Below, one piece after another: positions 1-13,740 of a DNA stretch of 32,000 nucleotides. Source of the DNA: Candidatus Heimdallarchaeota archaeon (GTDB taxonomy: Archaea > Asgardarchaeota > Heimdallarchaeia > Heimdallarchaeales > Kariarchaeaceae). The stretch spans positions 30,001 to 62,000 of the forward strand of contig JASBSB010000007.1 of assembly GCA_030149205.1 (NCBI GenBank). The letters run 5' to 3'. A program made the translations under genes and the position numbers. Position 1 is the stretch's first letter. Every line of letters begins with the position of its first letter. The notes beneath the pieces are model-generated. The model did not search any database. It was not told the origin of the DNA and saw only the letters and a list, made by a program, of their open reading frames with translations.

Positions 1-246
1 AGAGGAGCTGGAGATTGTGTGACGGTGTGCCCTAAGGATTGCTTTGTGTATCTTGATGAGAAGAAGAAGGTGAGTATTCCCCGTCCAGAGTCCTGTGTGC
101 AATGTGGAGCTTGTGTGGTGCAGTGTCCTTTTGATGCACTATATCTTGAAAACCTAAATGGTGATCGAATGGAACCAGATACCTTACGAGAGTTCAAGTT
201 AAATCTCATGGGCAAAAGAGCAGTTAAAATTAAAGAGATTGTTTAA
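1..246 (+). CDS. 4Fe-4S dicluster ferredoxin-like protein, 5'-truncated at the window edge
   Basis: Frame 1 is open from base 1 (RGAGDCVTVCP...), giving the end of a first CxxxxCxxxCP motif, plus a second CVQCGACVVQCP motif. The ORF-track start at 19 is internal. Confidence 0.85.
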   Translation, partial: RGAGDCVTVCPKDCFVYLDEKKKVSIPRPESCVQCGACVVQCPFDALYLENLNGDRMEPDTLREFKLNLMGKRAVKIKEIV

Positions 247-305
247 TTATATTAATGAGCTTTTAAGAAATATTAGGAATCCTAACCAGAGTGTTTGGAA
301 TGAGA

Positions 306-977
306 TTATGATGTGGCTTTTGGGCGAAACATTTTTTCTTTTATACCACTCATCATCATCATCATTTTACTAAACATAGATTTTTTCCTGTAATCTTTGA
401 TTGTGACCTCTATTGCATTTGCCACATTTTTCTCTGCCTCAAACATTGCGATTCTGAGTGGACAGTTCTTTCCAAGGGGACAGGTATGACTTGACTTGTG
501 TTCTATCATCCATGGATACACCGCTTTTTTCAAGAGTCTCTCCTCAAACATCTCTCTCTCATCTGAGGTGACATCTGCCCAGTCTGTGCTCTTGTAATCC
601 TCATCCAGAACCATTTTTATAGAATCTACCAACATGTTAACATCGACCTTGTCTTTTTCGGTGTCGAATTTTTCATAGGGAAATCCGAGGGTGATGAAAT
701 ACATGTTGTGAGCAACATAATAGAAGACAAGATTTGTATCCCCAATTTTTATGGTTATCACACCCCCTTCTCCAACGTCTTTTATTATTAATTCAGTTCC
801 CTCATAATCGATTTTTCCACCCAGACCTCCTGCCTGAATTGCAGAGGTGAGTGCTGATAGAAAAGCACTAAAAATGACATCATCCTTCATTAGTGTCGAG
901 CAGAAATGTCCAAAACATCTGCTGTAAATAGGGATCCCATCAGTTTTAAAAACAATAATGTACTCCAAGTTTAGCAT
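306..977 (-). CDS. Longin-like domain protein with a Cys-containing C-terminal extension
   Basis: N-terminal beta-hairpin IIVFKTDGIPIYSR followed by helix DDVIFSAFLSAL is the pattern of longin-fold proteins that are expanded in Asgard archaea. Recognised by eye only. Confidence 0.55.
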   Translation of the reverse strand: MLNLEYIIVFKTDGIPIYSRCFGHFCSTLMKDDVIFSAFLSALTSAIQAGGLGGKIDYEGTELIIKDVGEGGVITIKIGDTNLVFYYVAHNMYFITLGFPYEKFDTEKDKVDVNMLVDSIKMVLDEDYKSTDWADVTSDEREMFEERLLKKAVYPWMIEHKSSHTCPLGKNCPLRIAMFEAEKNVANAIEVTIKDYRKKSMFSKMMMMMSGIKEKMFRPKATS

Positions 978-1265: not shown

Positions 1266-3992
1266 ATGAGTGAAATCTTAGCTTCTCTGGGTTTAGGTTC
1301 AGATGAACAAAAAATCTACAAAACGCTTTTGGTAAGTGGTCAGCTAACAGCTGGAGAGATAAGAGCAATAACCAAACTTACATCTTCAATGGTTGATTCT
1401 ACGCTTGGAAAACTGGTGGAACAGGGTCTCGTAAGAAGTGTCCCCGGAATGTCTGAGCGTTATGCAGCATTGCTTCCTGTAAAAAAGGTAAAAGAGGGGT
1501 TAGATCAATCTATTATGGAACTATCCACAGTTACTAGAGAGCTAGATGAGAGCTCTAAATCAACATCTTCTGCTCTAGATCAGATCAACCAGGAATCGCT
1601 TCAGAAACTGGATGCTAGCCTTGAATCAAGCCGTGGTGTAATTTCTGAGATGTATGAGAATGCAACAAAAGAGCTCACAGATGAGAAGACTAAGACGGAG
1701 AGCCAAATAACACAGACTTCTGAAAGCAGACAACAGGTTGTCAAGCAATATTTAGGTGAGACTCAGGGTCAGGTTAACTCTCTCATTGACTCCACAGTTG
1801 AAAAGGCAGAAGATCAAACAACCACTGCCAAGGAAGCGGTGAATCGTACAGCCACAGAGCTTGTTGATACCACTATTTTACCTGATCGAGAGTTTGAGGT
1901 CAACACCACACCATTAGACAGCTTTCCAACTACTGTGACAACTGAGATGAATGCCTACAGAACCGATATTGAAGGATCATTAAGCTCACAACAAGACAAA
2001 TCAGCAGAACTCATAAATCAAACCTTTGCCTCTTATGAGGCAGGAATTGCGGATCTGGAGAAATCAATGGATACAACCTCTGCGTCTTTTATTAATGCAT
2101 CAACTGGGTTTGGAAACAGAGTCGGAGAGCAGGTAGCAGAGATTAAATCAAGTATTGTCAGTCAAAAAGAGGCATTATCCTTACAAAAGGGTGCTTCAGA
2201 GGGAGTAATAGATTCTCAAAAAAGTTTCACAGAAGAGATCGGTCAAAAATTTAGTGATTTAATTGATAAAGGGACTCAAGACCTTCAGGCAAATGTCAAT
2301 GCAGAATATTTAAAGTTGAATGAGGAGGTCACTGGGCTTAGGTCTGAGACTCAACAATCTGTCACTTCCACCTCAACTGAACTGAATCAGACTGAGAACA
2401 AACTCTCAGAATTTTTTGTTGGTCAATTACAAAGACAGGAAGCAGAGATAAAGGAGTCCTTGCAGACCCATTTTCAGCAGATTCTTTCACAGCTACAATC
2501 TAAGGTTTCTGATGTCCACACTGCATTCTCAGCGCAAATGACTGAAGAGTTACAGACCTTAAAAGCCTTTAGAGAAGCCACACTTAAAGCAAGCTTGGAA
2601 AGATCCAATGGTAGATTGAATCAGGTGGAAGAACAGTTTAAAGCAGTACAAAACCAACAAATTTCGGATTTGTATGCTGCTAACGAGCAATTGAAGAATG
2701 TTTTAAACACTATGAAGGATCAATTGGGATCAAAGTCAGAGGAATTACTAAGTTCTAACACTGCTGTGTTTGAGAGGGTAAACACACAGCTTAGTAAACA
2801 GGGTGAATCATGGGATGTACTTAAGAGCAATTTTGATTCGAGCCTGAATCAGGTCGTAGAGGAACAAAAGAGGCTAGTTGCAGAAGCGAAGACACAGTTG
2901 GCTGAAGATAAACAGACAATAAGCCAGCTAATTTCATCACTGGGCGAATCACACACATCATTAACAGCAACAAACATCACCCAGGTTAATGAGCTTACAT
3001 CTCGTATTCTTTCTAACATAACAGAAAAAACACAGGGATTGAAATCAGAGGTATTATCGAGTTCTGAAAAGTTTAATCAGGAATACAAAACTGCCATGAA
3101 CTCCTTGTTGCAGAGCTTTCGTGGATCAGTACAAAAAGCAATGGAACAATACTCTAATTTGGTAACATCAATAGGATCAGAATCTAAGCTCACCTTGGAA
3201 ACACAGAAAAGCAAAATGACCGAAATGATGCAAAAGATGAATGAAGACATGGAACAACTCTTTCTGAATTCTCTTGGTGTACAGAATAAGCTTGTTGAAA
3301 ACAGTATCTCGTTCTTGACCCTGCAAAGCAATGAACTGAAAACGTTATCAGTTTCGAATCTGGATCTCATAAAACAGGTGTTGAGTCAGGCAGGGAATGA
3401 GCAGGTTGACAAACTTAAGGGGCAGTTAAACTCATTTCAGCAGGCATTTGATCAGAGTAGCCACCGAATAACTCAGGCATCTACCCAGCTCTCAATGGCG
3501 TTAGAGGGTGTGGGATCCCTTATTCAGATGACTGAGACACCGACTATAAAAACTTCACATTTGATTGGTAAAGAGGCGATAATAGAACACATCAGTGACA
3601 TGATTGGAAGAGTCAAGAGTAAAATGACCATCCTTGTTCCAGACATCAACATGATCAATGAAAATCAGCTTTCTCAGTTGCCTAGCACCAAACAGATTAC
3701 ACTTGTATCATATATTGATGAAGAGACAGACCGTGAATGGATAGATAGAATGCATAATTTAACTGTGAATGTGACATTACGTACCCTTCAAAAGGGAGGT
3801 TTAGGAGGTACAGTTCCAGACTTTGTAGGTGCTGAGAGAGAGGGTGAAGAGATACTGCTAGGAACTATTGATGAAGGAAACAATGATTTTGTGGCTATAA
3901 TCTCAAGCTCAGCCTATTTTGTACAAATTTTGGGTAATATTGTGATTTCTGATTACGCAAGGGGTAGAAGCAAACAACTTCAGAAAAACTGA
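1266..3992 (+). CDS. TrmB-family wHTH + very long coiled coil + TrmB C-terminal (PLD-like effector) domain protein, 908 aa
   Basis: N-terminus LGLGSDEQKIYKTLLVSGQLTAGEI...VDSTLGKLVEQGLVRSVPG is a TrmB wHTH. About 650 aa of Q/E/S/L-rich helical sequence follows. The C-terminus LIGKEAIIEHISDMIGRVKSKMTILVP...AEREGEEILL resembles the TrmB C-terminal domain. Confidence 0.7.
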   Translation: MSEILASLGLGSDEQKIYKTLLVSGQLTAGEIRAITKLTSSMVDSTLGKLVEQGLVRSVPGMSERYAALLPVKKVKEGLDQSIMELSTVTRELDESSKSTSSALDQINQESLQKLDASLESSRGVISEMYENATKELTDEKTKTESQITQTSESRQQVVKQYLGETQGQVNSLIDSTVEKAEDQTTTAKEAVNRTATELVDTTILPDREFEVNTTPLDSFPTTVTTEMNAYRTDIEGSLSSQQDKSAELINQTFASYEAGIADLEKSMDTTSASFINASTGFGNRVGEQVAEIKSSIVSQKEALSLQKGASEGVIDSQKSFTEEIGQKFSDLIDKGTQDLQANVNAEYLKLNEEVTGLRSETQQSVTSTSTELNQTENKLSEFFVGQLQRQEAEIKESLQTHFQQILSQLQSKVSDVHTAFSAQMTEELQTLKAFREATLKASLERSNGRLNQVEEQFKAVQNQQISDLYAANEQLKNVLNTMKDQLGSKSEELLSSNTAVFERVNTQLSKQGESWDVLKSNFDSSLNQVVEEQKRLVAEAKTQLAEDKQTISQLISSLGESHTSLTATNITQVNELTSRILSNITEKTQGLKSEVLSSSEKFNQEYKTAMNSLLQSFRGSVQKAMEQYSNLVTSIGSESKLTLETQKSKMTEMMQKMNEDMEQLFLNSLGVQNKLVENSISFLTLQSNELKTLSVSNLDLIKQVLSQAGNEQVDKLKGQLNSFQQAFDQSSHRITQASTQLSMALEGVGSLIQMTETPTIKTSHLIGKEAIIEHISDMIGRVKSKMTILVPDINMINENQLSQLPSTKQITLVSYIDEETDREWIDRMHNLTVNVTLRTLQKGGLGGTVPDFVGAEREGEEILLGTIDEGNNDFVAIISSSAYFVQILGNIVISDYARGRSKQLQKN

Positions 3993-4026: not shown

Positions 4027-4098
4027 TTTACATCCCAATTCAATTTTACATTCCAATTCAATTTTAGATTTCAATTCAAATTTAGCTTTCAACATTAT
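4027..4098. repeat. Degenerate 18-bp tandem repeat, 3-4 copies
   Basis: Units tttacatcccaattcaat / tttacattccaattcaat / tttagatttcaattcaaa / tttagctttcaacattat at 4027, 4045, 4063 and 4081. Confidence 0.75.
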
Positions 4099-4107
4099 AA
4101 GAATGAA

Positions 4108-4581
4108 TTAACCGCTGTTTTCTACAATGTTGACCATATTCTTTTTGGAATGCCACTTATTAAGCAAGTCAATTAGACCAATCTCAATAAATTCAAGGAG
4201 TTCATCCAGCTCCTCTAATCTCGTTAATCTGAATTGTTTTCTATCCAAAGATTTCAGTCCATTTTCTACTAAATTCTTGTATTCTTTTGTTACCTGAATA
4301 TTTCTGGTGAGAATGCTTTCTGCTTGATTATACTTTATCAGATATACGTCTTTTCTCTTACCAGGTATACTTTTCCTTTCTATCATGTCAAGCTTTGTCA
4401 ACAGTGACGTTGCAGAGCTTACCGAACTTTTGCTTACCTTTAGACCCTTAACAATTTCATCCATTGTCTGTTCGGGAGGGTCACTTATTAGTAACCATCC
4501 AATAATCCTGCCAGTCATTCGTGTGAGACCCTGACTTTCATAAAAAAGACCCATCTCTTCGCTGAAAGTTTTTGCATTCAT
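4108..4581 (-). CDS. GbsR/MarR-family transcriptional regulator
   Basis: MGLFYESQGLTRMTGRIIGWLLISDPPEQTMDEIVKGLKVSKSSVS is the GbsR-type wHTH signature. The gene is divergent from an ABC exporter. Confidence 0.85.
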   Translation of the reverse strand: MNAKTFSEEMGLFYESQGLTRMTGRIIGWLLISDPPEQTMDEIVKGLKVSKSSVSSATSLLTKLDMIERKSIPGKRKDVYLIKYNQAESILTRNIQVTKEYKNLVENGLKSLDRKQFRLTRLEELDELLEFIEIGLIDLLNKWHSKKNMVNIVENSG

Positions 4582-4730
4582 TCACTTTATGATTCAGTCA
4601 TATTTCTTAATCTTATTTGTTTGTCTAAATACTATTGAGGTAGATTGAGAATAAAATTCTGTTTGTTCAGTAATTACTGAATTCACAAAACAGTTTTTAT
4701 AATTCTAATTGTATATTCCATTGTGGTCAA

Positions 4731-5618
4731 ATGAGTGATAATACAGTTATTAATATGAACGGGGTTACCAAGACATTTGGGTCAGTAGTTGCATTGGATA
4801 ACGTGTCTATGCAGATCAAAAGAGGCGAGATATTCGGATTTTTAGGGCAGAATGGAGCAGGAAAGACTACTGCAATGAGATGTGTGTTGAATATTCTAAT
4901 TCCTGACAATGGAAACATAACAATAGATGAAACACCAGTAGACCGGGATCACACATCAATCAGAGACAAGGTAGGTTATCTTCCGGGTGAGTTATTTATT
5001 CCAGGGCATTACAGAGTCAGAGAATTCATTGATTATATTGCCTCATTAAAAAAAGTTCCTTCCACGAGAAAAGAGGAGATAATTAAGTTATTTGATGTTG
5101 AAGATGCAAAGAAAGTTTCAGAGCTAAGCAAAGGAAACAAACAGAAAATTGGAATTGTTCTTGCTTTTATGGCAGACCCAGAGATTCTAATACTTGACGA
5201 ACCTAGCTCTGGACTTGATCCGATCTATCAGCAGAAATTATATGATTTGATTTTTAAGGAGAAAAAGAGGGGAAAGACCATATTTTTCAGTTCTCATAAT
5301 TTGGATGAGGTGCAAAGAATCTGTGACAGGGTCACTATCATTAGAAAGGGTAAAATCATAACTACTGAGAGTGTTGAAGGTTTATCTGGAAAGATCCCAA
5401 GAACCCTTATTGCAAAAGTCAATCAGTTCAATGAGGAACAGCTAAAATCATTACCAAATATTTCTGAACTTGATAAAGAAAACAAACAGATCAAGTTAAA
5501 AATATCGAAGTCTGAGAATTTGCAAACTATATTGAAACAATTAATTGAATTTGATGTGGAGGACATCTCATATCCCCCTGTATCTCTGGAAGAATACTTC
5601 CTTTCAGAGTATAATTAA
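4731..5618 (+). CDS. ABC transporter ATP-binding subunit (exporter type)
   Basis: Walker A GQNGAGKT, signature LSKGNKQK, Walker B ILILDEP, H-loop SSH. Confidence 0.95.
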   Translation: MSDNTVINMNGVTKTFGSVVALDNVSMQIKRGEIFGFLGQNGAGKTTAMRCVLNILIPDNGNITIDETPVDRDHTSIRDKVGYLPGELFIPGHYRVREFIDYIASLKKVPSTRKEEIIKLFDVEDAKKVSELSKGNKQKIGIVLAFMADPEILILDEPSSGLDPIYQQKLYDLIFKEKKRGKTIFFSSHNLDEVQRICDRVTIIRKGKIITTESVEGLSGKIPRTLIAKVNQFNEEQLKSLPNISELDKENKQIKLKISKSENLQTILKQLIEFDVEDISYPPVSLEEYFLSEYN

Positions 5619-5628
5619 GGTGAGAGAG

Positions 5629-7323
5629 ATGAATAAAACGCTACAAAGGTTTTATCTACATGGAAAACGATTTAGATTGGAATTGGGGCTTTCAATCCTT
5701 CTGAATACATTGTTCATGAGTTTAATCATTGGATTTTATCCGGGTGAGAAAGGTTTGGATCCCTTTGTTAAGCTATTACAGTCAACATTTCTCAAGGAGG
5801 TCATTAATCAAGCTGAGTTAAAGGCCAGTGCTCTTCTGTTTTGGACGGGATTGAGCTATGACATCTACTTCTACCTTTTGACTGCAATATTTGCAATTTT
5901 TATTGGTTCAAAAGTTATTCCTACAGGAGATCAGGCAGGTTCTGAGTATATTTTAGGAGCTAACTCCATCTCAATGCGAAGGTATTATCTTGAGAGTTCC
6001 CTCGTTGGTTTGGTTAATTTTCTAATAGGTGCCTTATTTGGTGCAGGGATTGTTTTAACTTTCCTTGTGTCAAATAATGTCTCAGCTGATCTATATGGTA
6101 GATTCTTGATACTCAATCTAATATTTTTAATTATAGCTTCCTTTTACTTTTCTTTAGCTCTGGTTTCATCAGTCTTTTCATTTTCAAAAAGCACAGGTGT
6201 GTTGGTTGGGTTTATCTATCTGATCTTTTCTTTTACCTGGCAATCTGTTGCTCCAGCTAGTCAACAATTTTCGGGATTGAAAGATCTTTCTCTGAAAGTT
6301 TATCTAACCTTCCCTGAACTACTTATCCGGGGAAATTTTGATGTAAGCAAACTACTGATTTCCACCTCCTTGGTTTTAGCTATATTCACTCTTGGTCTGT
6401 ATAAGATTCATTCGATTGAAATTAAGGAAGGTAGTTCCCCAATAACAAAGTTTAGGAAATTTTTATCAGCTAAATTTAGATTTTTGAATCTTCCTAGCAT
6501 TAATTTTGGGTATCCCAATTTTATTAAAAAGCGATTTCCATTGGCACAGGATCAATTTAATGCTGATTGGAAGTTTTTATCTATTTGGACATCCATTGTT
6601 CTTTTAACAAATTTGTCAAAGTTGGTTTCTTATCCAGGAGAGGCTGGTTTGAAGGACGCAATGGGTATATTCCTCAACAATCCAGCCTTAGGTGCACTGC
6701 TTAAAGGGAATGTCATAACCTATAATTACACAGGGTATGTTGAATTACAGATTTTTGCCTTGGTTTCAATCTTTTATGGGATCCCAGTCGCAATTATAAG
6801 TGCGAACATCCCCTCAAGAGATGCTCTGGGCGGATATGCAGACAGTATCTGGGCTAACAATGTCTCAGTTTACAAAGTCATGTCCACACGTGTCACGGTT
6901 ATGGTCATAGAGGTTAGCTTGATGTTACTAGCATCATTGGGGATAGCAGAATTTCTTCCCACTTTAACTGGATATCAATTAGATCTTAATATTCCAGAGT
7001 TATTGATTATTACAATCATTCTTTTTGTTGGCTTAGGGCTGTTAATTTCAGGTATTTCAATGATACCTCATATCAGATCAGGAAAGACCTGGGGTATTGC
7101 ATTTTATGTGCTCAGCTTATTAATTGATCTTATTGCAAATTCTAAGAGTGAGTGGAAGAATTTTCAGTACTTTTCTGTGCTGGGGTATTATGACCCAATT
7201 GGAGTGGCAAATGGAGCCGTGAGCTTTGGTTCTGCCCTTCTTTCTGTATCAGTTATTGCTCTTATCGGTTTGATAATTTTTATTGTTTCATTGATTAGAT
7301 TTAGCAAAAGAGATTTGGTTTAA
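5629..7323 (+). CDS. ABC-2-type permease with two repeated multi-TM halves
   Basis: Many hydrophobic segments in two similar halves. The start is placed at ATG 5629 (MNKTLQ) after an AAGGTGAG RBS; the ORF-track start at 5545 overlaps the ATPase gene. Confidence 0.75.
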   Translation: MNKTLQRFYLHGKRFRLELGLSILLNTLFMSLIIGFYPGEKGLDPFVKLLQSTFLKEVINQAELKASALLFWTGLSYDIYFYLLTAIFAIFIGSKVIPTGDQAGSEYILGANSISMRRYYLESSLVGLVNFLIGALFGAGIVLTFLVSNNVSADLYGRFLILNLIFLIIASFYFSLALVSSVFSFSKSTGVLVGFIYLIFSFTWQSVAPASQQFSGLKDLSLKVYLTFPELLIRGNFDVSKLLISTSLVLAIFTLGLYKIHSIEIKEGSSPITKFRKFLSAKFRFLNLPSINFGYPNFIKKRFPLAQDQFNADWKFLSIWTSIVLLTNLSKLVSYPGEAGLKDAMGIFLNNPALGALLKGNVITYNYTGYVELQIFALVSIFYGIPVAIISANIPSRDALGGYADSIWANNVSVYKVMSTRVTVMVIEVSLMLLASLGIAEFLPTLTGYQLDLNIPELLIITIILFVGLGLLISGISMIPHIRSGKTWGIAFYVLSLLIDLIANSKSEWKNFQYFSVLGYYDPIGVANGAVSFGSALLSVSVIALIGLIIFIVSLIRFSKRDLV

Positions 7324-10452: not shown

Positions 10453-11199
10453 ATGGTGGATCCCCTCAAAATTCTAGAAGAAGAGAAGACATACCTTCAA
10501 AATAATGAACCTACCTTTAATCAGTCAGATGCCACAGGGAGAGTATTCACTGGAAAGGTAGGCAGGCTTCAATCTGGAGAAGATATACAAGTTCAAATTA
10601 CCTTTCCTGATTTTTATCCGATTGAAAAGCCAATTATTAAGGTATTAACTGATATGGAGCATCCAAATGTGAATACTAATTCATCCTTAGATCTTGCAAT
10701 ACTTGACTACTGGGAACCAGACTTCAGGATAAAGAATGTTCTTGGGGATGTAAGGAGACTGTTTATCAGGAGTAAAAAGGTCATAAAAATCAAGCCACAA
10801 AAAAGTGTAGAGCCGGTTTCGGTAAATCCACAAACGATTCAGTTGGTAGGGGAAATTGAGACCCTACAGAGACAAATTACAGAACTTGATAAGCAGATTC
10901 AGGAGAAGAAAATTACTGTAATGAATAAACAAGGAGTATCCGTACAGTCTGCAATTAAGGTCTCATTAAAGGATGAGTTGGATTGTGAATTTCATGCTTT
11001 GAATGACCTGTTGGAACTCTTAGATTATAAATTTGAGGACGCTGAAATTGATCAGACAGATTATTTCAGGTTGTATAAGCACTACACAAAGGAACACTAT
11101 AAGCTTTCTGAACAGTTGAAAAGCTTAAATTCCGAAAAACAGGAGAACGAAGAATATGTCGTATCAAACAAGAAAGAAAAAAGACTCATTAGATCTTAG
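10453..11199 (+). CDS. vps23: ESCRT-I Vps23/TSG101-like protein (UEV + coiled coil + steadiness-box-like C-terminus)
   Basis: UBC fold (ITFPDFYPIEKP...HPNVNTNSSLDLAILDYW) with the catalytic Cys replaced by Asp, then a coiled coil (GEIETLQRQITELDKQIQEKK) and a helical hairpin. First gene of the ESCRT cluster. Confidence 0.85.
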   Translation: MVDPLKILEEEKTYLQNNEPTFNQSDATGRVFTGKVGRLQSGEDIQVQITFPDFYPIEKPIIKVLTDMEHPNVNTNSSLDLAILDYWEPDFRIKNVLGDVRRLFIRSKKVIKIKPQKSVEPVSVNPQTIQLVGEIETLQRQITELDKQIQEKKITVMNKQGVSVQSAIKVSLKDELDCEFHALNDLLELLDYKFEDAEIDQTDYFRLYKHYTKEHYKLSEQLKSLNSEKQENEEYVVSNKKEKRLIRS

Positions 11200-11785
11200 A
11201 GCGGATTTATACTCTGCAATTGCCACAATGGACAAATTAAGTTCACATTTTGACAAGGGAATGGTTGAGGAGACCCTTTATAGAAGACAGTTGAAATCTG
11301 CGATATCTACAGTATTTAAGGCGCAACATGAGTTAGAACAGGATGGTTTTGATATAAATCAATTCATTGAAGAAAACTCCTTAGAAAGCAAATTCCCTAA
11401 CGGGATGAAGAGATTGAATCTGATGGAGGGATTGGAATCAGACGAAGAGACAACTTTATCGCTTGATACCTTGAAAAAGCTCCCTGAGAAGACTGCGGAT
11501 TTTGTTGCTCATTCAATAGAGTTGATTGATCTATTAAGATTAAAATCACTTGCCAGGGTAGAGTTGATAGTACCCCTGTTGGATGAACTTTACAATGTGG
11601 TCTTGAAATTCCCTACTATGGGGTCTGAACATTGGACAGCAGTTGAAATTAGAGGATGGAGAGATGTTTTGGTTGATGAACCACCAAGTAAGGTACTCTC
11701 AGAAGAAGATGTTGAGAGACTTGAATTTGAGGTATCAAGATGGCTCAATGAATTCAGAACCAATATTAAAAATCTTGAAGTGTGA
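11156..11785 (+). CDS. vps28: ESCRT-I Vps28
   Basis: ADLYSAIATMDKL...Y resembles the Vps28 N-terminal core, and FVAHSIELIDLLRL...IVPLLDEL...W...RLEFEV resembles the C-terminal four-helix bundle. An AGGAG RBS lies about 10 nt upstream; the gene overlaps vps23 by 44 nt. Confidence 0.88.
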   Translation: MSYQTRKKKDSLDLRADLYSAIATMDKLSSHFDKGMVEETLYRRQLKSAISTVFKAQHELEQDGFDINQFIEENSLESKFPNGMKRLNLMEGLESDEETTLSLDTLKKLPEKTADFVAHSIELIDLLRLKSLARVELIVPLLDELYNVVLKFPTMGSEHWTAVEIRGWRDVLVDEPPSKVLSEEDVERLEFEVSRWLNEFRTNIKNLEV

Positions 11786-11791
11786 AGTCCC

Positions 11792-12511
11792 ATGGGTTTA
11801 AGAGACATTGAACGTAAGATACGCATCAAGAGTGCATTTCAACAAAAAGAAGGAGAGCTTCTTTTAGAGGAGCTTGATCAACTGATTAAGAACTATAAAA
11901 TTTTGGAAAAGCAGCTTAAATCATTTGAGAAGAAACATAAAAAGGATATTAAGGAGAACAAGGAATACTACCAAAAAATAAGTGAGTTAAGACGTGAGCT
12001 TGGATTACCTGAAGAGATTGGTGTGTATGACTGGAAGGAATCACCCAGTTTCATGGACAAGATCACTGGCAAGGGGTATTTTAACCAGCTTGCTCAAGAG
12101 ATATTAGAAGTTGGTAAATCAAGTGTAAGAGACTCTGGTGGGTTAGTATCACTGGCAGAGTTGGTTTTAAGGGTAAATAAAGTCAGACCTGGAAAGTTGG
12201 TTTCTCCGCAAGATGTAGTCAGAGCAGTTGAAAGTCTGGATAAGAATGGCTTGATATCAGGGATCAGAGAGCTTGAGTCTGGTGTAAAATTAGTGGAGTT
12301 TGTTAGTGTAAGTCTTTCACCAGATCAGGAGAAAGTCTTTAGTCTCGCTTCTCGAACCGGATTTATCACCATGGAACAACTCATTCTCAAATCTAAATGG
12401 CCTCTGGAAAGAGCAAAAAGGGTATTAGATGACCTGGTTGAAGATGGGATAGCTTTGATAGATGAAACCTATTCCGAGGGAACAAAATATTGGTTCCCAT
12501 CATTAGGATAA
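11792..12511 (+). CDS. vps22: ESCRT-II Vps22/SNF8 (EAP30 domain, Vps22/36-like)
   Basis: MGLRDIERK N-terminal helix, FEKKHKKDIKEN...LGL, FNQLAQEILEVG...SGGLVSL, and two winged helices ending YWFP. Confidence 0.9.
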   Translation: MGLRDIERKIRIKSAFQQKEGELLLEELDQLIKNYKILEKQLKSFEKKHKKDIKENKEYYQKISELRRELGLPEEIGVYDWKESPSFMDKITGKGYFNQLAQEILEVGKSSVRDSGGLVSLAELVLRVNKVRPGKLVSPQDVVRAVESLDKNGLISGIRELESGVKLVEFVSVSLSPDQEKVFSLASRTGFITMEQLILKSKWPLERAKRVLDDLVEDGIALIDETYSEGTKYWFPSLG

Positions 12512-12594
12512 AAAACGATTTTTACTCATTCACATCCATTAAATTAAGAAAGAATTAAATTAGACTTTGTTCATATTGATATTAGGAGTTTTCT

Positions 12595-13740
12595 GTGAGC
12601 ACCAATCTTTATGCAAGAGCCCAATTACTGGCACAGTCTGCCGTTCAGGCAGATAATGCCGGAGACCATGGAACAGCCCTCTCAAAGTACTTACAGGCAG
12701 CGGAAATACTGTTAGAGATGGCTAAATACACAAACAACCCCCGATTGGTTCAGACATATGAGGGGAGAGCACAGTCATATATTGACAGGGCGAAGATGTT
12801 AAAGAAGCTGAAAACCGAAAAACCTCGGAAGGCTAAATCTCAATCTGATGAGGATGACGACGAGATAAATTCAACGATAGAGGAAGCCATCCTATCTACC
12901 AAACCGGATGTCACGTTAACTGATGTTGCTGGTTTAGCAGATGTCAAAACAGCCTTACGAGAGGCAATAGTGTTACCTCTTATGAGACCAGATCTATTCA
13001 CAGGAGCAAGAAGACCATGGAAGGGGATCTTGTTATTTGGACCACCTGGGTGTGGAAAGACATTAATTGCAAAGGCAACCGCTGGAGATATAGAAGCAAC
13101 ATTTTTTAATGTATCAGCTGCAAATTTGGTGAGCAAGTGGTTAGGGGAGTCTGAGAAACTTGTGAAAAAACTTTACGATATGGCTGTTGAGAAACAACCA
13201 AGTATTATTTTTATTGACGAGATAGATTCTCTTACCCAATCCAGAGGTGGTACAGGAGAGAATGATGCTATGAGACGTATCAAGACTCAGCTTTTGACAA
13301 GTATGGAGGGGTTAACAAGTTCTTCAGACCAGAGGGTTGTAACAATTGGAGCTACAAACATACCTTGGGAAATTGACACAGCGTTCAGAAGAAGGTTTGA
13401 AAGGAGGATATTTGTTCCAGTTCCTGATTTGGCAGCTCGAAGAAAGATTTTTGAGTTGAACACTGAGGGCATCAAATTAGATTCCTCTGTTGATTTTGAT
13501 CAATTAAGTGCTCTCACAGAGGAATATTCTGGTTCTGATATTGCCAACATCTGTCGAGAGGCCATTTTTATCCCAATTAGAGAATTAGATACCAGTGGAG
13601 CATTCAAGGATAAATCCATTAAGGCCAGGGATGTCACTCAACAAGACTTTCTTAGTGCTTTAAACAACGTTAAAGCCTCAGTTAGTCAACGAGAGCTGAA
13701 ACGGTTTGTTGACTGGAATGAGGAATATGGGGCTGGTTAA
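12595..13740 (+). CDS. vps4: Vps4 AAA+ ATPase with N-terminal MIT domain
   Basis: MIT domain (AVQADNAGDHGTALSKYLQAAE), Walker A GPPGCGKT, pore loop SKWLGESEK, Walker B FIDEID, Arg fingers FRRRF. GTG start after AGGAG. Confidence 0.96.
   Translation: MSTNLYARAQLLAQSAVQADNAGDHGTALSKYLQAAEILLEMAKYTNNPRLVQTYEGRAQSYIDRAKMLKKLKTEKPRKAKSQSDEDDDEINSTIEEAILSTKPDVTLTDVAGLADVKTALREAIVLPLMRPDLFTGARRPWKGILLFGPPGCGKTLIAKATAGDIEATFFNVSAANLVSKWLGESEKLVKKLYDMAVEKQPSIIFIDEIDSLTQSRGGTGENDAMRRIKTQLLTSMEGLTSSSDQRVVTIGATNIPWEIDTAFRRRFERRIFVPVPDLAARRKIFELNTEGIKLDSSVDFDQLSALTEEYSGSDIANICREAIFIPIRELDTSGAFKDKSIKARDVTQQDFLSALNNVKASVSQRELKRFVDWNEEYGAG

Follow-up and report, generated by a model that had tools for sequence, protein, structure and literature searches.

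A TrmBL2-like protein of Asgard archaea with a 683-residue hendecad rod as a possible fixed-length spacer or tether

How eukaryotic cell organisation arose is a question pursued in Asgard archaea, of whose structural proteins, to our knowledge, few are understood apart from actin, ESCRT components and small GTPases. In the window analysed here, a stretch of 32,000 nucleotides of a Candidatus Heimdallarchaeota archaeon (assembly GCA_030149205.1, contig JASBSB010000007.1, positions 30,001 to 62,000), one gene encodes a protein in which the parts of a TrmB-type head are placed at the two ends of a very long helical region. What does such a protein do: does it regulate transcription, does it bridge DNA with widely separated heads, as the initial annotation of the sequence had proposed, or does it serve another, structural purpose? 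The best explanation is a cytoplasmic, acidic, structural TrmBL2-like protein that descends from the TrmBL2 branch within the TrmB family. We give about even credence to the fuller reading, in which a TrmBL2-type head sits on a self-folded hendecad rod and the whole acts as a fixed-length structural spacer or tether.

The gene and its two end domains

The features of the gene are listed in Table 1. It forms a monocistronic transcription unit between a divergent gene (306-977, minus strand) and a convergent MarR gene (4108-4581, minus strand), and a synteny comparison of eight related loci revealed no conserved neighbours except generic ABC ATPases. The protein is acidic overall (pI 4.8). As first annotated, it lacks Walker motifs and membrane segments: neither a Walker A pattern nor a TM-like segment was detected in its 908 residues, and searches of Pfam and NCBIfam gave no match to an ATPase family. 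A membrane protein was thus dismissed for want of a TM segment and an SMC-type ATPase for want of a Walker A motif.

Table 1 Features of the gene and of the predicted protein, with positions in the window
Feature	Residues	Position	Strand	Basis and remarks
Whole gene		1266..3992	+	908 aa plus stop; open throughout; orthologues 878-943 aa
TrmB-type winged helix-turn-helix	1-72	1266..1481	+	Pfam PF01978; family profile vs PDB
Head-proximal N-arm helix	73-201	1482..1868	+	AlphaFold helix 72-201; first ~30 residues conserved
Pro hinge (P206, P216, P221)	202-221	1869..1928	+	AlphaFold loop 202-214
Distal N-arm helix	222-400	1929..2465	+	AlphaFold helix 215-400; local period 3.6-3.7
Predicted fold-back turn (tip)	401-405	2466..2480	+	DSSP loop; rod fraction 0.48
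Distal C-arm helix	406-601	2481..3068	+	AlphaFold
Low-confidence stretch	602-615	3069..3110	+	pLDDT below 50; mirrors Pro hinge across tip
Head-proximal C-arm helix	616-755	3111..3530	+	AlphaFold; last ~45 residues conserved
PLD-like alpha/beta domain, TrmB/TrmBL2 type	763-908	3552..3989	+	Predicted fold; structural matches
E-R-E-G-E-E invariant acidic motif	857-862	3834..3851	+	Orthologue invariant columns

The N-terminal winged helix-turn-helix (wHTH) was correctly assigned to the TrmB type, since the Pfam TrmB model (PF01978) matches residues 5-69 with 38.6 bits (cut-off 25.6). In the PDB, an N-terminal family profile recovered TrmB (3qph, E 1.6e-12, residues 2-127) and TrmBL2 (E 1.2e-8); the profile was needed, as a single-sequence PDB search with residues 1-110 gave no match. 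BLASTP against the ordinary TrmB-like protein encoded in the window produced an alignment limited to the wHTH. The supposed 'DNA-binding heads' can claim this homology, their sole basis, and lose the canonical recognition residues. The Arg-x-Tyr of the recognition helix of TrmB (NRVYD) and TrmBL2 (PRTYD) is missing, M42 and D44 being found here, and among 86 relatives the two columns hold mostly E, A, Q, K, T or D, with Arg and Tyr outside the eight commonest residues. The recognition helix (about residues 38-50) is acidic or polar and variable even among orthologues; the basic wing is conserved, including R65 and Y66 in the family columns. In most family members, the wHTH carries a net charge of 0 to -5. 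Because the recognition-helix Arg and Tyr are lost across the 86 members and the whole protein is acidic, canonical DNA binding is doubtful; any contact with DNA would be non-canonical, through the conserved basic wing instead of the recognition helix.

At the other end, AlphaFold predicts a PLD-like alpha/beta fold for residues 763-904 (pLDDT 93, pTM 0.86). The best structural match of this model is TrmB (3qph_A, Z 14.1, rmsd 2.8 Å, 133 aa), and the further matches 2f5t_X (Z 14.0) and TrmBL2 5bpd_A (Z 13.2) likewise rank above the PLD enzymes, of which NucT and Nuc match the fold at Z 12-13. The TrmB-type C-terminal domain of the initial annotation therefore stands as a fold (Z 13-14) and fails at the level of sequence recognition. 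Residues 750-908 matched no Pfam model at E up to 1, PF11495 (Regulator_TrmB) included, and the family profile found no PDB sequence match for the domain; it is TrmB-like by fold only, as no Pfam model matches it. As no further domain follows the PLD-like subdomain, the protein lacks the beta subdomain with which TrmB binds sugar, and the structural match stops at TrmB chain residue 243. The catalytic HxK(x)4D motif is missing as well: the corresponding strand carries E-R-E-G-E-E, which occurs as ERDGEE in distant relatives, and no catalytic His or Lys. A PLD/Nuc (HKD) enzyme, which the fold would match, was discarded for lack of the HKD motif.

Periodicity, length and distribution of the rod

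The centre of the protein, initially described as a Q/E/S/L-rich helical stretch of roughly 650 aa, has the composition described (S 13%, L 11%, E 10%, Q 10% and also T 9%) and is somewhat longer, the rod between the end domains comprising 683 residues (73-755). It does not resolve into known globular or sensor domains. AlphaFold predicts helices at residues 72-201, 215-400 and 406-755, so that the rod helix, which is about 20 times longer than that of TrmBL2, starts directly after the wHTH at residue 72. Only 3 Pro occur in the 683 residues, all within one hinge; this hinge, placed at about 195-220 in the initial annotation, was located at 202-221, and 22 of 24 orthologues retain a Pro in it. 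Indels also concentrate there, in steps of 21-22 residues. The orthologues P0007 and P0009 have Pro at 601-611, i.e. in the stretch opposite the hinge, and at the end of the rod L742 and L746 are nearly invariant.

The hydrophobic residues of the rod recur with a period of 3.645 residues and a power of 11.8, far beyond chance (shuffle maximum 1.1-1.6), and there is no heptad signal (power 0.23 at 3.5); the sharp 3.645 period without a signal at 3.5 is common to the target and seven relatives. Autocorrelation peaks are found at 11, 22, 29, 40 and 51 residues. The phase of the hydrophobic face is coherent over all 683 residues and its arc covers only about ±40 degrees, like that of two-helix packing; the face is narrow (LIVMFYW about 27%) and the net charge of the rod is -34. 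The choice between heptad and 11-mer thus falls on the 11-residue type. A canonical heptad coiled coil was dropped, and the term 'coiled coil' of the initial annotation is right only in the broad sense, given a period of 3.645 instead of 3.5. Phage tape-measure proteins are the top PDB sequence match of the family profile; homology to them was rejected, the match reflecting rod periodicity and composition only.

Twenty-four full-length orthologues share the architecture of TrmB head parts and a very long helical region, which was found throughout the phylum, namely in 261 of the 400 Asgard genomes searched, often in several copies. The orthologue search used the C-terminal domain, as a word-indexed search with the whole protein returned only the query because words of the rod swamped the candidates. 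Family frames span 650-1,860 aa, and the length of the rod, which ranges from 528 to 1,258 residues across the phylum, is fixed within each clade, at least 7 proteins, for instance, sharing a length of 528 aa and others one of 587 or 692 aa; further length classes lie at 757, about 860, about 1,050 and about 1,250 residues. Rod indels come in steps of 11, 21 and 22 residues. According to the orthologue consensus, the termini are conserved and the rod sequence is not, and sequence drift at a constant rod length is the hallmark of a molecular spacer or tether. The TrmBL2 dimerisation helix (~35 residues) has here been expanded about 20-fold by 11-residue units to 683 residues with a narrow hydrophobic seam. 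In the literature, we found no paper on this architecture; the one Asgard chromatin preprint found to mention TrmBL names it only as a category in a figure legend.

Fold-back of the rod and competing readings

The initial annotation had pictured the heads apart along a full-length rod. The AlphaFold model departs from this picture: it folds back, with the end domains together and a length of ~50 nm rather than 100 nm. In the most likely arrangement, which follows this model, the chain reverses at residues 401-405 and its two arms pack against each other into an antiparallel, two-helix rod of ~50 nm, so that both end domains would lie together at one end of it. The model comes from a monomer run (pTM 0.30) with only 24 sequences, and such runs are reported to yield spuriously bent coiled-coil models (PMC11676326). 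The pLDDT is below 50 at residues 398-407 around the tip, and the tip of the target contains no Pro, Gly or other helix breaker and is not conserved. Parts of the model superpose on known folded rods: residues 276-530 on the antiparallel Pyrococcus Smc arm 5xg2_A (237 aa, Z 11.3), 229-578 on the chemoreceptor hairpin 2ch7_A (306 residues), 253-537 on a second chemoreceptor hairpin, 3zx6_B, and 71-756 on the folded cohesin elbow 7ogt_A. The wHTH and the last helix end (1..751) superpose jointly on compact MarR-like proteins.

Relative to the two nearest subfamilies, the length changes in the two halves of the rod are 75/83 and 49/55 (p about 0.10 and 0.11), and the insertions of P0021 lie on either side of the tip; indels relative to distant subfamilies, where the alignments are unreliable, are unbalanced (e.g. 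+126/+17 and +14/+157). Pro occurs at the exact midpoint of the rod in 9 of 46 sequence clusters against 4.8 expected, with a p of only about 0.04 for a window that was picked after the data were seen, and in 6 of the 9 clusters of at least 1,100 aa. The balanced indels towards the two nearest subfamilies and the midpoint prolines of the larger relatives give the fold-back modest support. Mirror symmetry is not counted in its favour: in an alignment-free analysis of 45 relatives the midpoint was not enriched (4/45 and 7/45 vs 6.7 expected), and in the target the best full-length centre of local-period mirror symmetry, at 411-412 (r 0.68), is equalled by other centres.

If the rod is folded in this manner, an elbow would form where the Pro hinge (202-221) faces residues 602-615, and the winged helix and the PLD-like domain would meet as a TrmBL2-like head, a prediction that is partly supported. 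The heads may pair as they do in TrmB and TrmBL2, which would give two rods or one four-helix rod per dimer. The conserved head with its invariant ER(E/D)GEE patch could then make a specific contact, and the rod, poorly conserved in sequence and conserved in length, would set the distance. We infer the spacer or tether role from shape alone.

The strongest competitor, although we consider it unlikely, is the shape of the initial annotation: a parallel, in-register homodimeric rod of ~100 nm with an elongated TrmB dimerisation helix, which carries the winged-helix pair and the PLD-like pair at opposite ends and bridges DNA to a distant partner or tethers the chromosome. As the helix that follows the wHTH promotes dimer formation in TrmB and TrmBL2 (PMC4877046), its elongation in place would be the simplest evolutionary path; a hydrophobic face coherent in phase over 683 residues, a mirror-symmetry test without sign of fold-back and a tip without helix breaker also fit a parallel rod. 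However, AlphaFold gives another shape, though for a monomer, the length changes relative to the two nearest subfamilies are balanced between the halves, the midpoint prolines of the larger relatives have no reason in a parallel rod, and its DNA-binding heads are doubtful in view of a recognition helix without the Arg and Tyr of TrmB. The length of the rod, 50 or 100 nm, is a prediction that separates the two readings and is directly testable with purified protein.

A surface-active protein similar to apolipoproteins, perilipins or LEA proteins, whose amphipathic 11/3 helix would cover a lipid or membrane surface or shield that surface under stress while the end domains anchor or regulate the helix, is improbable. 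The Pfam Apolipoprotein model scores 42 bits here, 82 in a paralogue of the same genome and 90.9 in P0066, the family profile matches ApoA-IV (E 9e-19), and the 11/3-type period is combined with a class-A-like arrangement in which Lys and Arg flank the hydrophobic face and Asp and Glu lie opposite. In the target, however, the PF01442 score of 42.4 bits stays below the cut-off of 90, and the narrow hydrophobic face (about 27% LIVMFYW), the net charge of -34 and the richness in S, T, Q and N are unlike apolipoproteins, as is a rod that has only 3 Pro and lacks Pro-punctuated 22-mers. The same profile matches phage tape-measure proteins even better than ApoA-IV, which suggests shared periodicity and composition over kinship. 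An ordinary ligand-responsive TrmB-type transcription regulator with the long helix as a mere linker, for which the Pfam TrmB match and the label 'sugar-specific transcriptional regulator TrmB' of relatives in some databases speak, is barely credible in a protein whose TrmB match ends at chain residue 243 before the absent sugar-binding subdomain, whose recognition helix is unconserved even among orthologues, whose gene adjoins no conserved target operon and whose relatives keep fixed rods of 528-1,258 residues phylum-wide, unexpected for a passive linker.

On the reading of a self-folded spacer or tether, a small DNA-binding chromatin protein would have been turned into the long rod that some two thirds of the searched Asgard genomes encode. 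A head that still binds DNA would make the protein a novel type of nucleoid-organising element; otherwise, a transcription-factor fold has been recruited as the head of a cytoskeleton-like rod. More speculatively, and with little confidence, the proteins might form an Asgard-specific scaffold of fixed-length, SMC-shaped tethers without an ATPase of their own, which connect the nucleoid, or some other large structure, with a partner and set the distance between the two; the larger paralogue, at least, would cooperate with the products of adjoining genes, a dedicated AAA_16-type ATPase and a second helical protein. Such a scaffold, if true, would amount to a hitherto unknown structural system in the prokaryotes most closely related to eukaryotes.

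Comparison with known systems

Several known systems share single traits with the protein. Chemoreceptors (MCPs) have, like the predicted fold, a long antiparallel helical hairpin rich in A, S, T, Q and E that is attached to a head; unlike the target with its unconserved tip, they are heptad-based membrane proteins whose highly conserved tip binds CheA and CheW. With the apolipoproteins A-I, A-IV and E (PF01442), the target has in common the 11-residue periodicity, class-A-like charges and sub-threshold Pfam and PDB sequence matches, whereas it lacks their Pro punctuation and is intracellular, S/T/Q/N-rich and equipped with a narrow face and an N-terminal wHTH. The arms of SMC, Rad50 and MukB resemble the predicted fold in that an antiparallel intramolecular coiled coil of ~50 nm with an elbow unites N- and C-terminal parts in one head. 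This resemblance is one of shape only: the target has neither an ABC ATPase head nor a Walker A motif, its period is hendecad and not heptad-based, and a 5-residue loop forms its tip in place of the hinge or zinc-hook dimerisation domain of SMC and Rad50.

TrmB (PDB 3qph, 2f5t), a sugar-sensing regulator of Thermococcales, is the best match for both end domains and differs by its extra sugar-binding beta subdomain (chain residues 244-338). Like the target, TrmBL2 (TK0471/PF0496; PDB 5bpd, 5bpi, 5bqt, 5box), a nucleoid-associated protein of Thermococcales, does without this subdomain, and both share the same order of parts, a TrmB-type winged helix, an amphipathic helix and a PLD-like domain, as described for TrmBL2 (PMC4877046). 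On DNA, TrmBL2 assembles into stiff filaments, and it stalls SMC (PMC11840125); the indirect signs of non-specific DNA binding in the target are mixed, with a conserved basic wing beside an acidic or polar recognition helix. Its recognition helix reads S-M-V-D-S, in a position that is variable in the family, in contrast to P-R-T-Y-D in TrmBL2, and whereas TrmBL2 comprises ~264 residues with one dimerisation helix, the target has a 683-residue helix with an 11-residue repeat and a Pro hinge.

End domains and periodicity of the rod

The target gene is an open frame of 908 codons and the sole long frame at its site; an antisense frame within it (positions 3077-3370) is without support. The encoded protein carries an N-terminal winged helix-turn-helix (wHTH) domain and a C-terminal PLD-like domain, separated by a rod of 683 residues (73-755). 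Both end assignments of the initial annotation were confirmed, the first by the Pfam TrmB model at residues 5-69 (38.6 bits; gathering score 25.6) and the second by its fold. No Pfam or NCBIfam model matches the last 150 residues; residues 750-908, modelled alone with 52 relatives, form an alpha/beta domain (pLDDT 93.4, pTM 0.86), which in an exhaustive structural comparison matched best to TrmB (3qph_A, Z 14.1, rmsd 2.8 Å, 133 residues; 2f5t_X, Z 14.0), followed by TrmBL2 (5bpd_A, Z 13.2), with the PLD enzymes NucT, Nuc, FAM83, and PLD ranking below these (Z 9-13) and the Foldseek ranking in accord. The match ends at residue 243 of the TrmB chain; the protein therefore lacks the sugar-binding subdomain of TrmB and is laid out like TrmBL2. 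An invariant E-R-E-G-E-E (residues 857-862) stands in place of the PLD catalytic HxK..D.

The rod is rich in Ser, Leu, Glu, Gln, and Thr, contains only three prolines, all within residues 206-221, and neither a Walker A motif nor a transmembrane-like segment was found in the protein. The earlier description of a long Q/E/S/L-rich helical region with a proline hinge and without such motifs thus stands, apart from its length of about 650 residues and small corrections to its coordinates. Fourier analysis of the hydrophobic residues of region 76-755 gave a single sharp peak at 3.645 residues (power 11.8; maximum of 1.1-1.6 after shuffling), a power of just 0.23 at the heptad period of 3.5, and a peak at 3.645-3.67 in seven relatives of 747-943 amino acids; the autocorrelation peaks at 11, 22, 29, 40, and 51 are consistent with hendecads plus a few heptads. 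Between the heptad and 11-mer repeats considered for the coiled coil, the canonical heptad was therefore not borne out, and the rod is of the hendecad type. In helical-wheel projection, hydrophobic residues span only about ±40 degrees and are flanked by Lys and Arg, with Asp and Glu opposite; the net charge of the rod is -34 and the pI of the whole protein 4.8. A sub-threshold Apolipoprotein match in Pfam and PDB sequence matches to ApoA-IV and a phage tape-measure protein are best read as common periodicity and composition.

Distribution and genomic context

A search with the C-terminal domain yielded 24 full-length orthologues (878-943 amino acids), which, where the source is named, belong to Heimdallarchaeota/Kariarchaeaceae and are annotated as "hypothetical" or "HTH domain-containing". 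Both ends are conserved in their alignment, but the rod is not; indels occur in steps of 11, 21, and 22 residues, and the hinge is present in 22 sequences. An exhaustive HMMER search extended the family to 133 relatives, many of 650-1,863 amino acids with matches at both ends, in which Pfam recognizes TrmB and Apolipoprotein; those with names derive from the Heimdall group, Hodarchaeales, or Sigynarchaeota, and in the ESM Atlas the closest clusters consist of Asgard "hypothetical proteins". The C-terminal domain was matched in 261 of 400 Asgard genomes (68 of the 90 of high quality; 69 of 85 genera), nearly always within open frames of 650-1,730 amino acids. Rod length is constant within clades: at least seven proteins, just 32-55% identical to the relative P0026, have a rod of 528 residues, and further lengths are 576, 587, 620, 658-669, 686, 692, 717, 731, 757, about 850, about 1,050, and about 1,250 residues. 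Among relatives P0026-P0113 these lengths form discrete clusters, 528 being 48 x 11.

The target gene is solitary: it is divergent from the gene of a 223-residue protein, and on its other side it converges with a MarR gene, which is followed by an ABC transporter. In eight related loci no conserved neighbours were detected, neither those of the window nor any other gene; the 223-residue protein has no Pfam match, and its relatives were not found beside target orthologues. The MarR gene is divergent from the ATPase/permease pair, and together they are an ordinary regulator-transporter unit. Direct repeats lie in the 115-nt spacer where the target and MarR genes converge. The ESCRT gene row fits an Asgard origin of the window; the gene of the ordinary TrmB-like protein lies just upstream of it.

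The same genome encodes a larger paralogue, whose cluster comprises, in order, a CARDB protein, a 746-residue protein, an AAA_16/ATPase_2 ATPase (556 residues), a helical, apolipoprotein-like protein of 436 residues, the rod protein, and an M24 peptidase. This order is kept in two other genomes (G053 and G051); conservation is weaker in a third (G397), where an AAA_16-like gene also lies upstream.

Features of the window and of the paralogue locus (contig C1, locus L012) in the same genome
Feature	Position	Strand	Remarks
223-residue protein	306-977	-	
Target, 908 residues	1266-3992	+	
Three direct repeats of about 15 nt	4030-4090		CAATTCAATTTTA-like
MarR-family regulator (157 residues), ABC ATPase, multi-pass permease (592 residues)	4108-7323		
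Ordinary TrmB-like protein, 296 residues	9386-10276	-	25.6 bits, exactly the Pfam threshold
ESCRT row: UEV/E2-variant (weak Vps23 core), Vps28, EAP30/Vps36-family protein, Vps4-like AAA ATPase	10453-13740		
Paralogue, 1,478 residues	L012:6804-11240	-	TrmB 24.7 bits, Apolipoprotein 82 bits, PLD-like end
Paralogue neighbours	L012:11241-18000	as paralogue	

Predicted topology of the rod

The AlphaFold model, based on a 24-sequence alignment (pLDDT 71.9, pTM 0.30), contains helices 72-201, 215-400, and 406-755, joined by loops 202-214 and 401-405, with a dip in confidence at 602-615, opposite the hinge. Its shape was read from the ranges superposed in the exhaustive structural comparison. The antiparallel Smc arm of Pyrococcus (5xg2_A, Z 11.3 over 237 residues) is matched by residues 276-530, a chemoreceptor hairpin (2ch7_A, over 306 residues) by residues 229-578, and 3zx6_B by residues 253-537. 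The wHTH domain jointly with the terminal part of the last helix (range 1..751) superposes on compact MarR-like proteins. The model thus describes a hairpin: its tip lies at 0.48 of the rod, and the two end domains are brought together. Folded back in this way, the arms would comprise 329 and 350 residues and measure about 49-52 nm.

As a prediction, we regard this fold-back as probable, with moderate confidence. In profile-profile alignments with the two nearest subfamilies, the length lost is near-even between the halves (75 and 83 residues in the forms of about 750 amino acids; 49 and 55 in those of about 805), a balance with a chance of about 1/10 in each case. Insertions in the relative P0021 flank the tip on both sides, prolines at 601-611 in two orthologues face the hinge, and a proline at the exact midpoint occurs in 9 of 46 sequence clusters (4.8 expected), including 6 of the 9 clusters of at least 1,100 amino acids. 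Against these stand observations that are adverse or neutral: the target has no helix breaker at the tip, the midpoint is not enriched in mirror symmetry of local period and amplitude among 45 relatives, and indels relative to distant subfamilies are unbalanced, in alignments that are poor and with a turn that might in any case slide along a degenerate 11-residue seam. Spuriously bent coiled-coil models from monomer AlphaFold runs are reported in PMC11676326. A parallel dimer of 100 nm is the alternative, which we consider less likely.

DNA binding and relation to known proteins

The N-terminal profile matches TrmB (E 1.6e-12) as well as TrmBL2 (E 1.2e-8), whose recognition helices each contain Arg-x-Tyr-Asp (NRVYD in TrmB, PRTYD in TrmBL2). 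At the Arg and Tyr positions the target has M42 and D44, which vary among orthologues, and the alignment of 86 full-length relatives shows mostly Glu, Ala, Gln, Lys, Thr, or Asp in the two columns; the net charge of the wHTH domain is positive in only 11 of the 86. The head proposed initially to bind DNA is a TrmB-type domain that has lost the Arg and Tyr of its recognition helix, and owing to this loss and the mostly non-positive charge, canonical major-groove recognition appears unlikely from the sequences. The ordinary TrmB-like protein of the window, unlike the target, retains K-I-Y in this helix. In the wing, R65 and Y66 are conserved across the 86 relatives; wing-mediated or non-specific DNA binding is possible, as is a purely protein-binding head.

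No description of a TrmB-headed long-rod architecture was found in the literature searched. The most likely reading is a putative structural spacer or tether of fixed length on a TrmBL2-type head. Among known proteins TrmBL2 comes closest; it has the domain order HTH, dimerisation helix, and C-terminal domain without a sugar domain (PMC4877046) and forms stiff filaments on DNA that stall SMC (PMC11840125). The target has this domain order and both folds in common with TrmBL2 and differs from it in a 20-fold longer hendecad helix, the proline hinge, the loss of the recognition-helix residues, and an acidic character. Its resemblance to SMC arms is confined to the predicted shape, and that to apolipoproteins to the periodicity.
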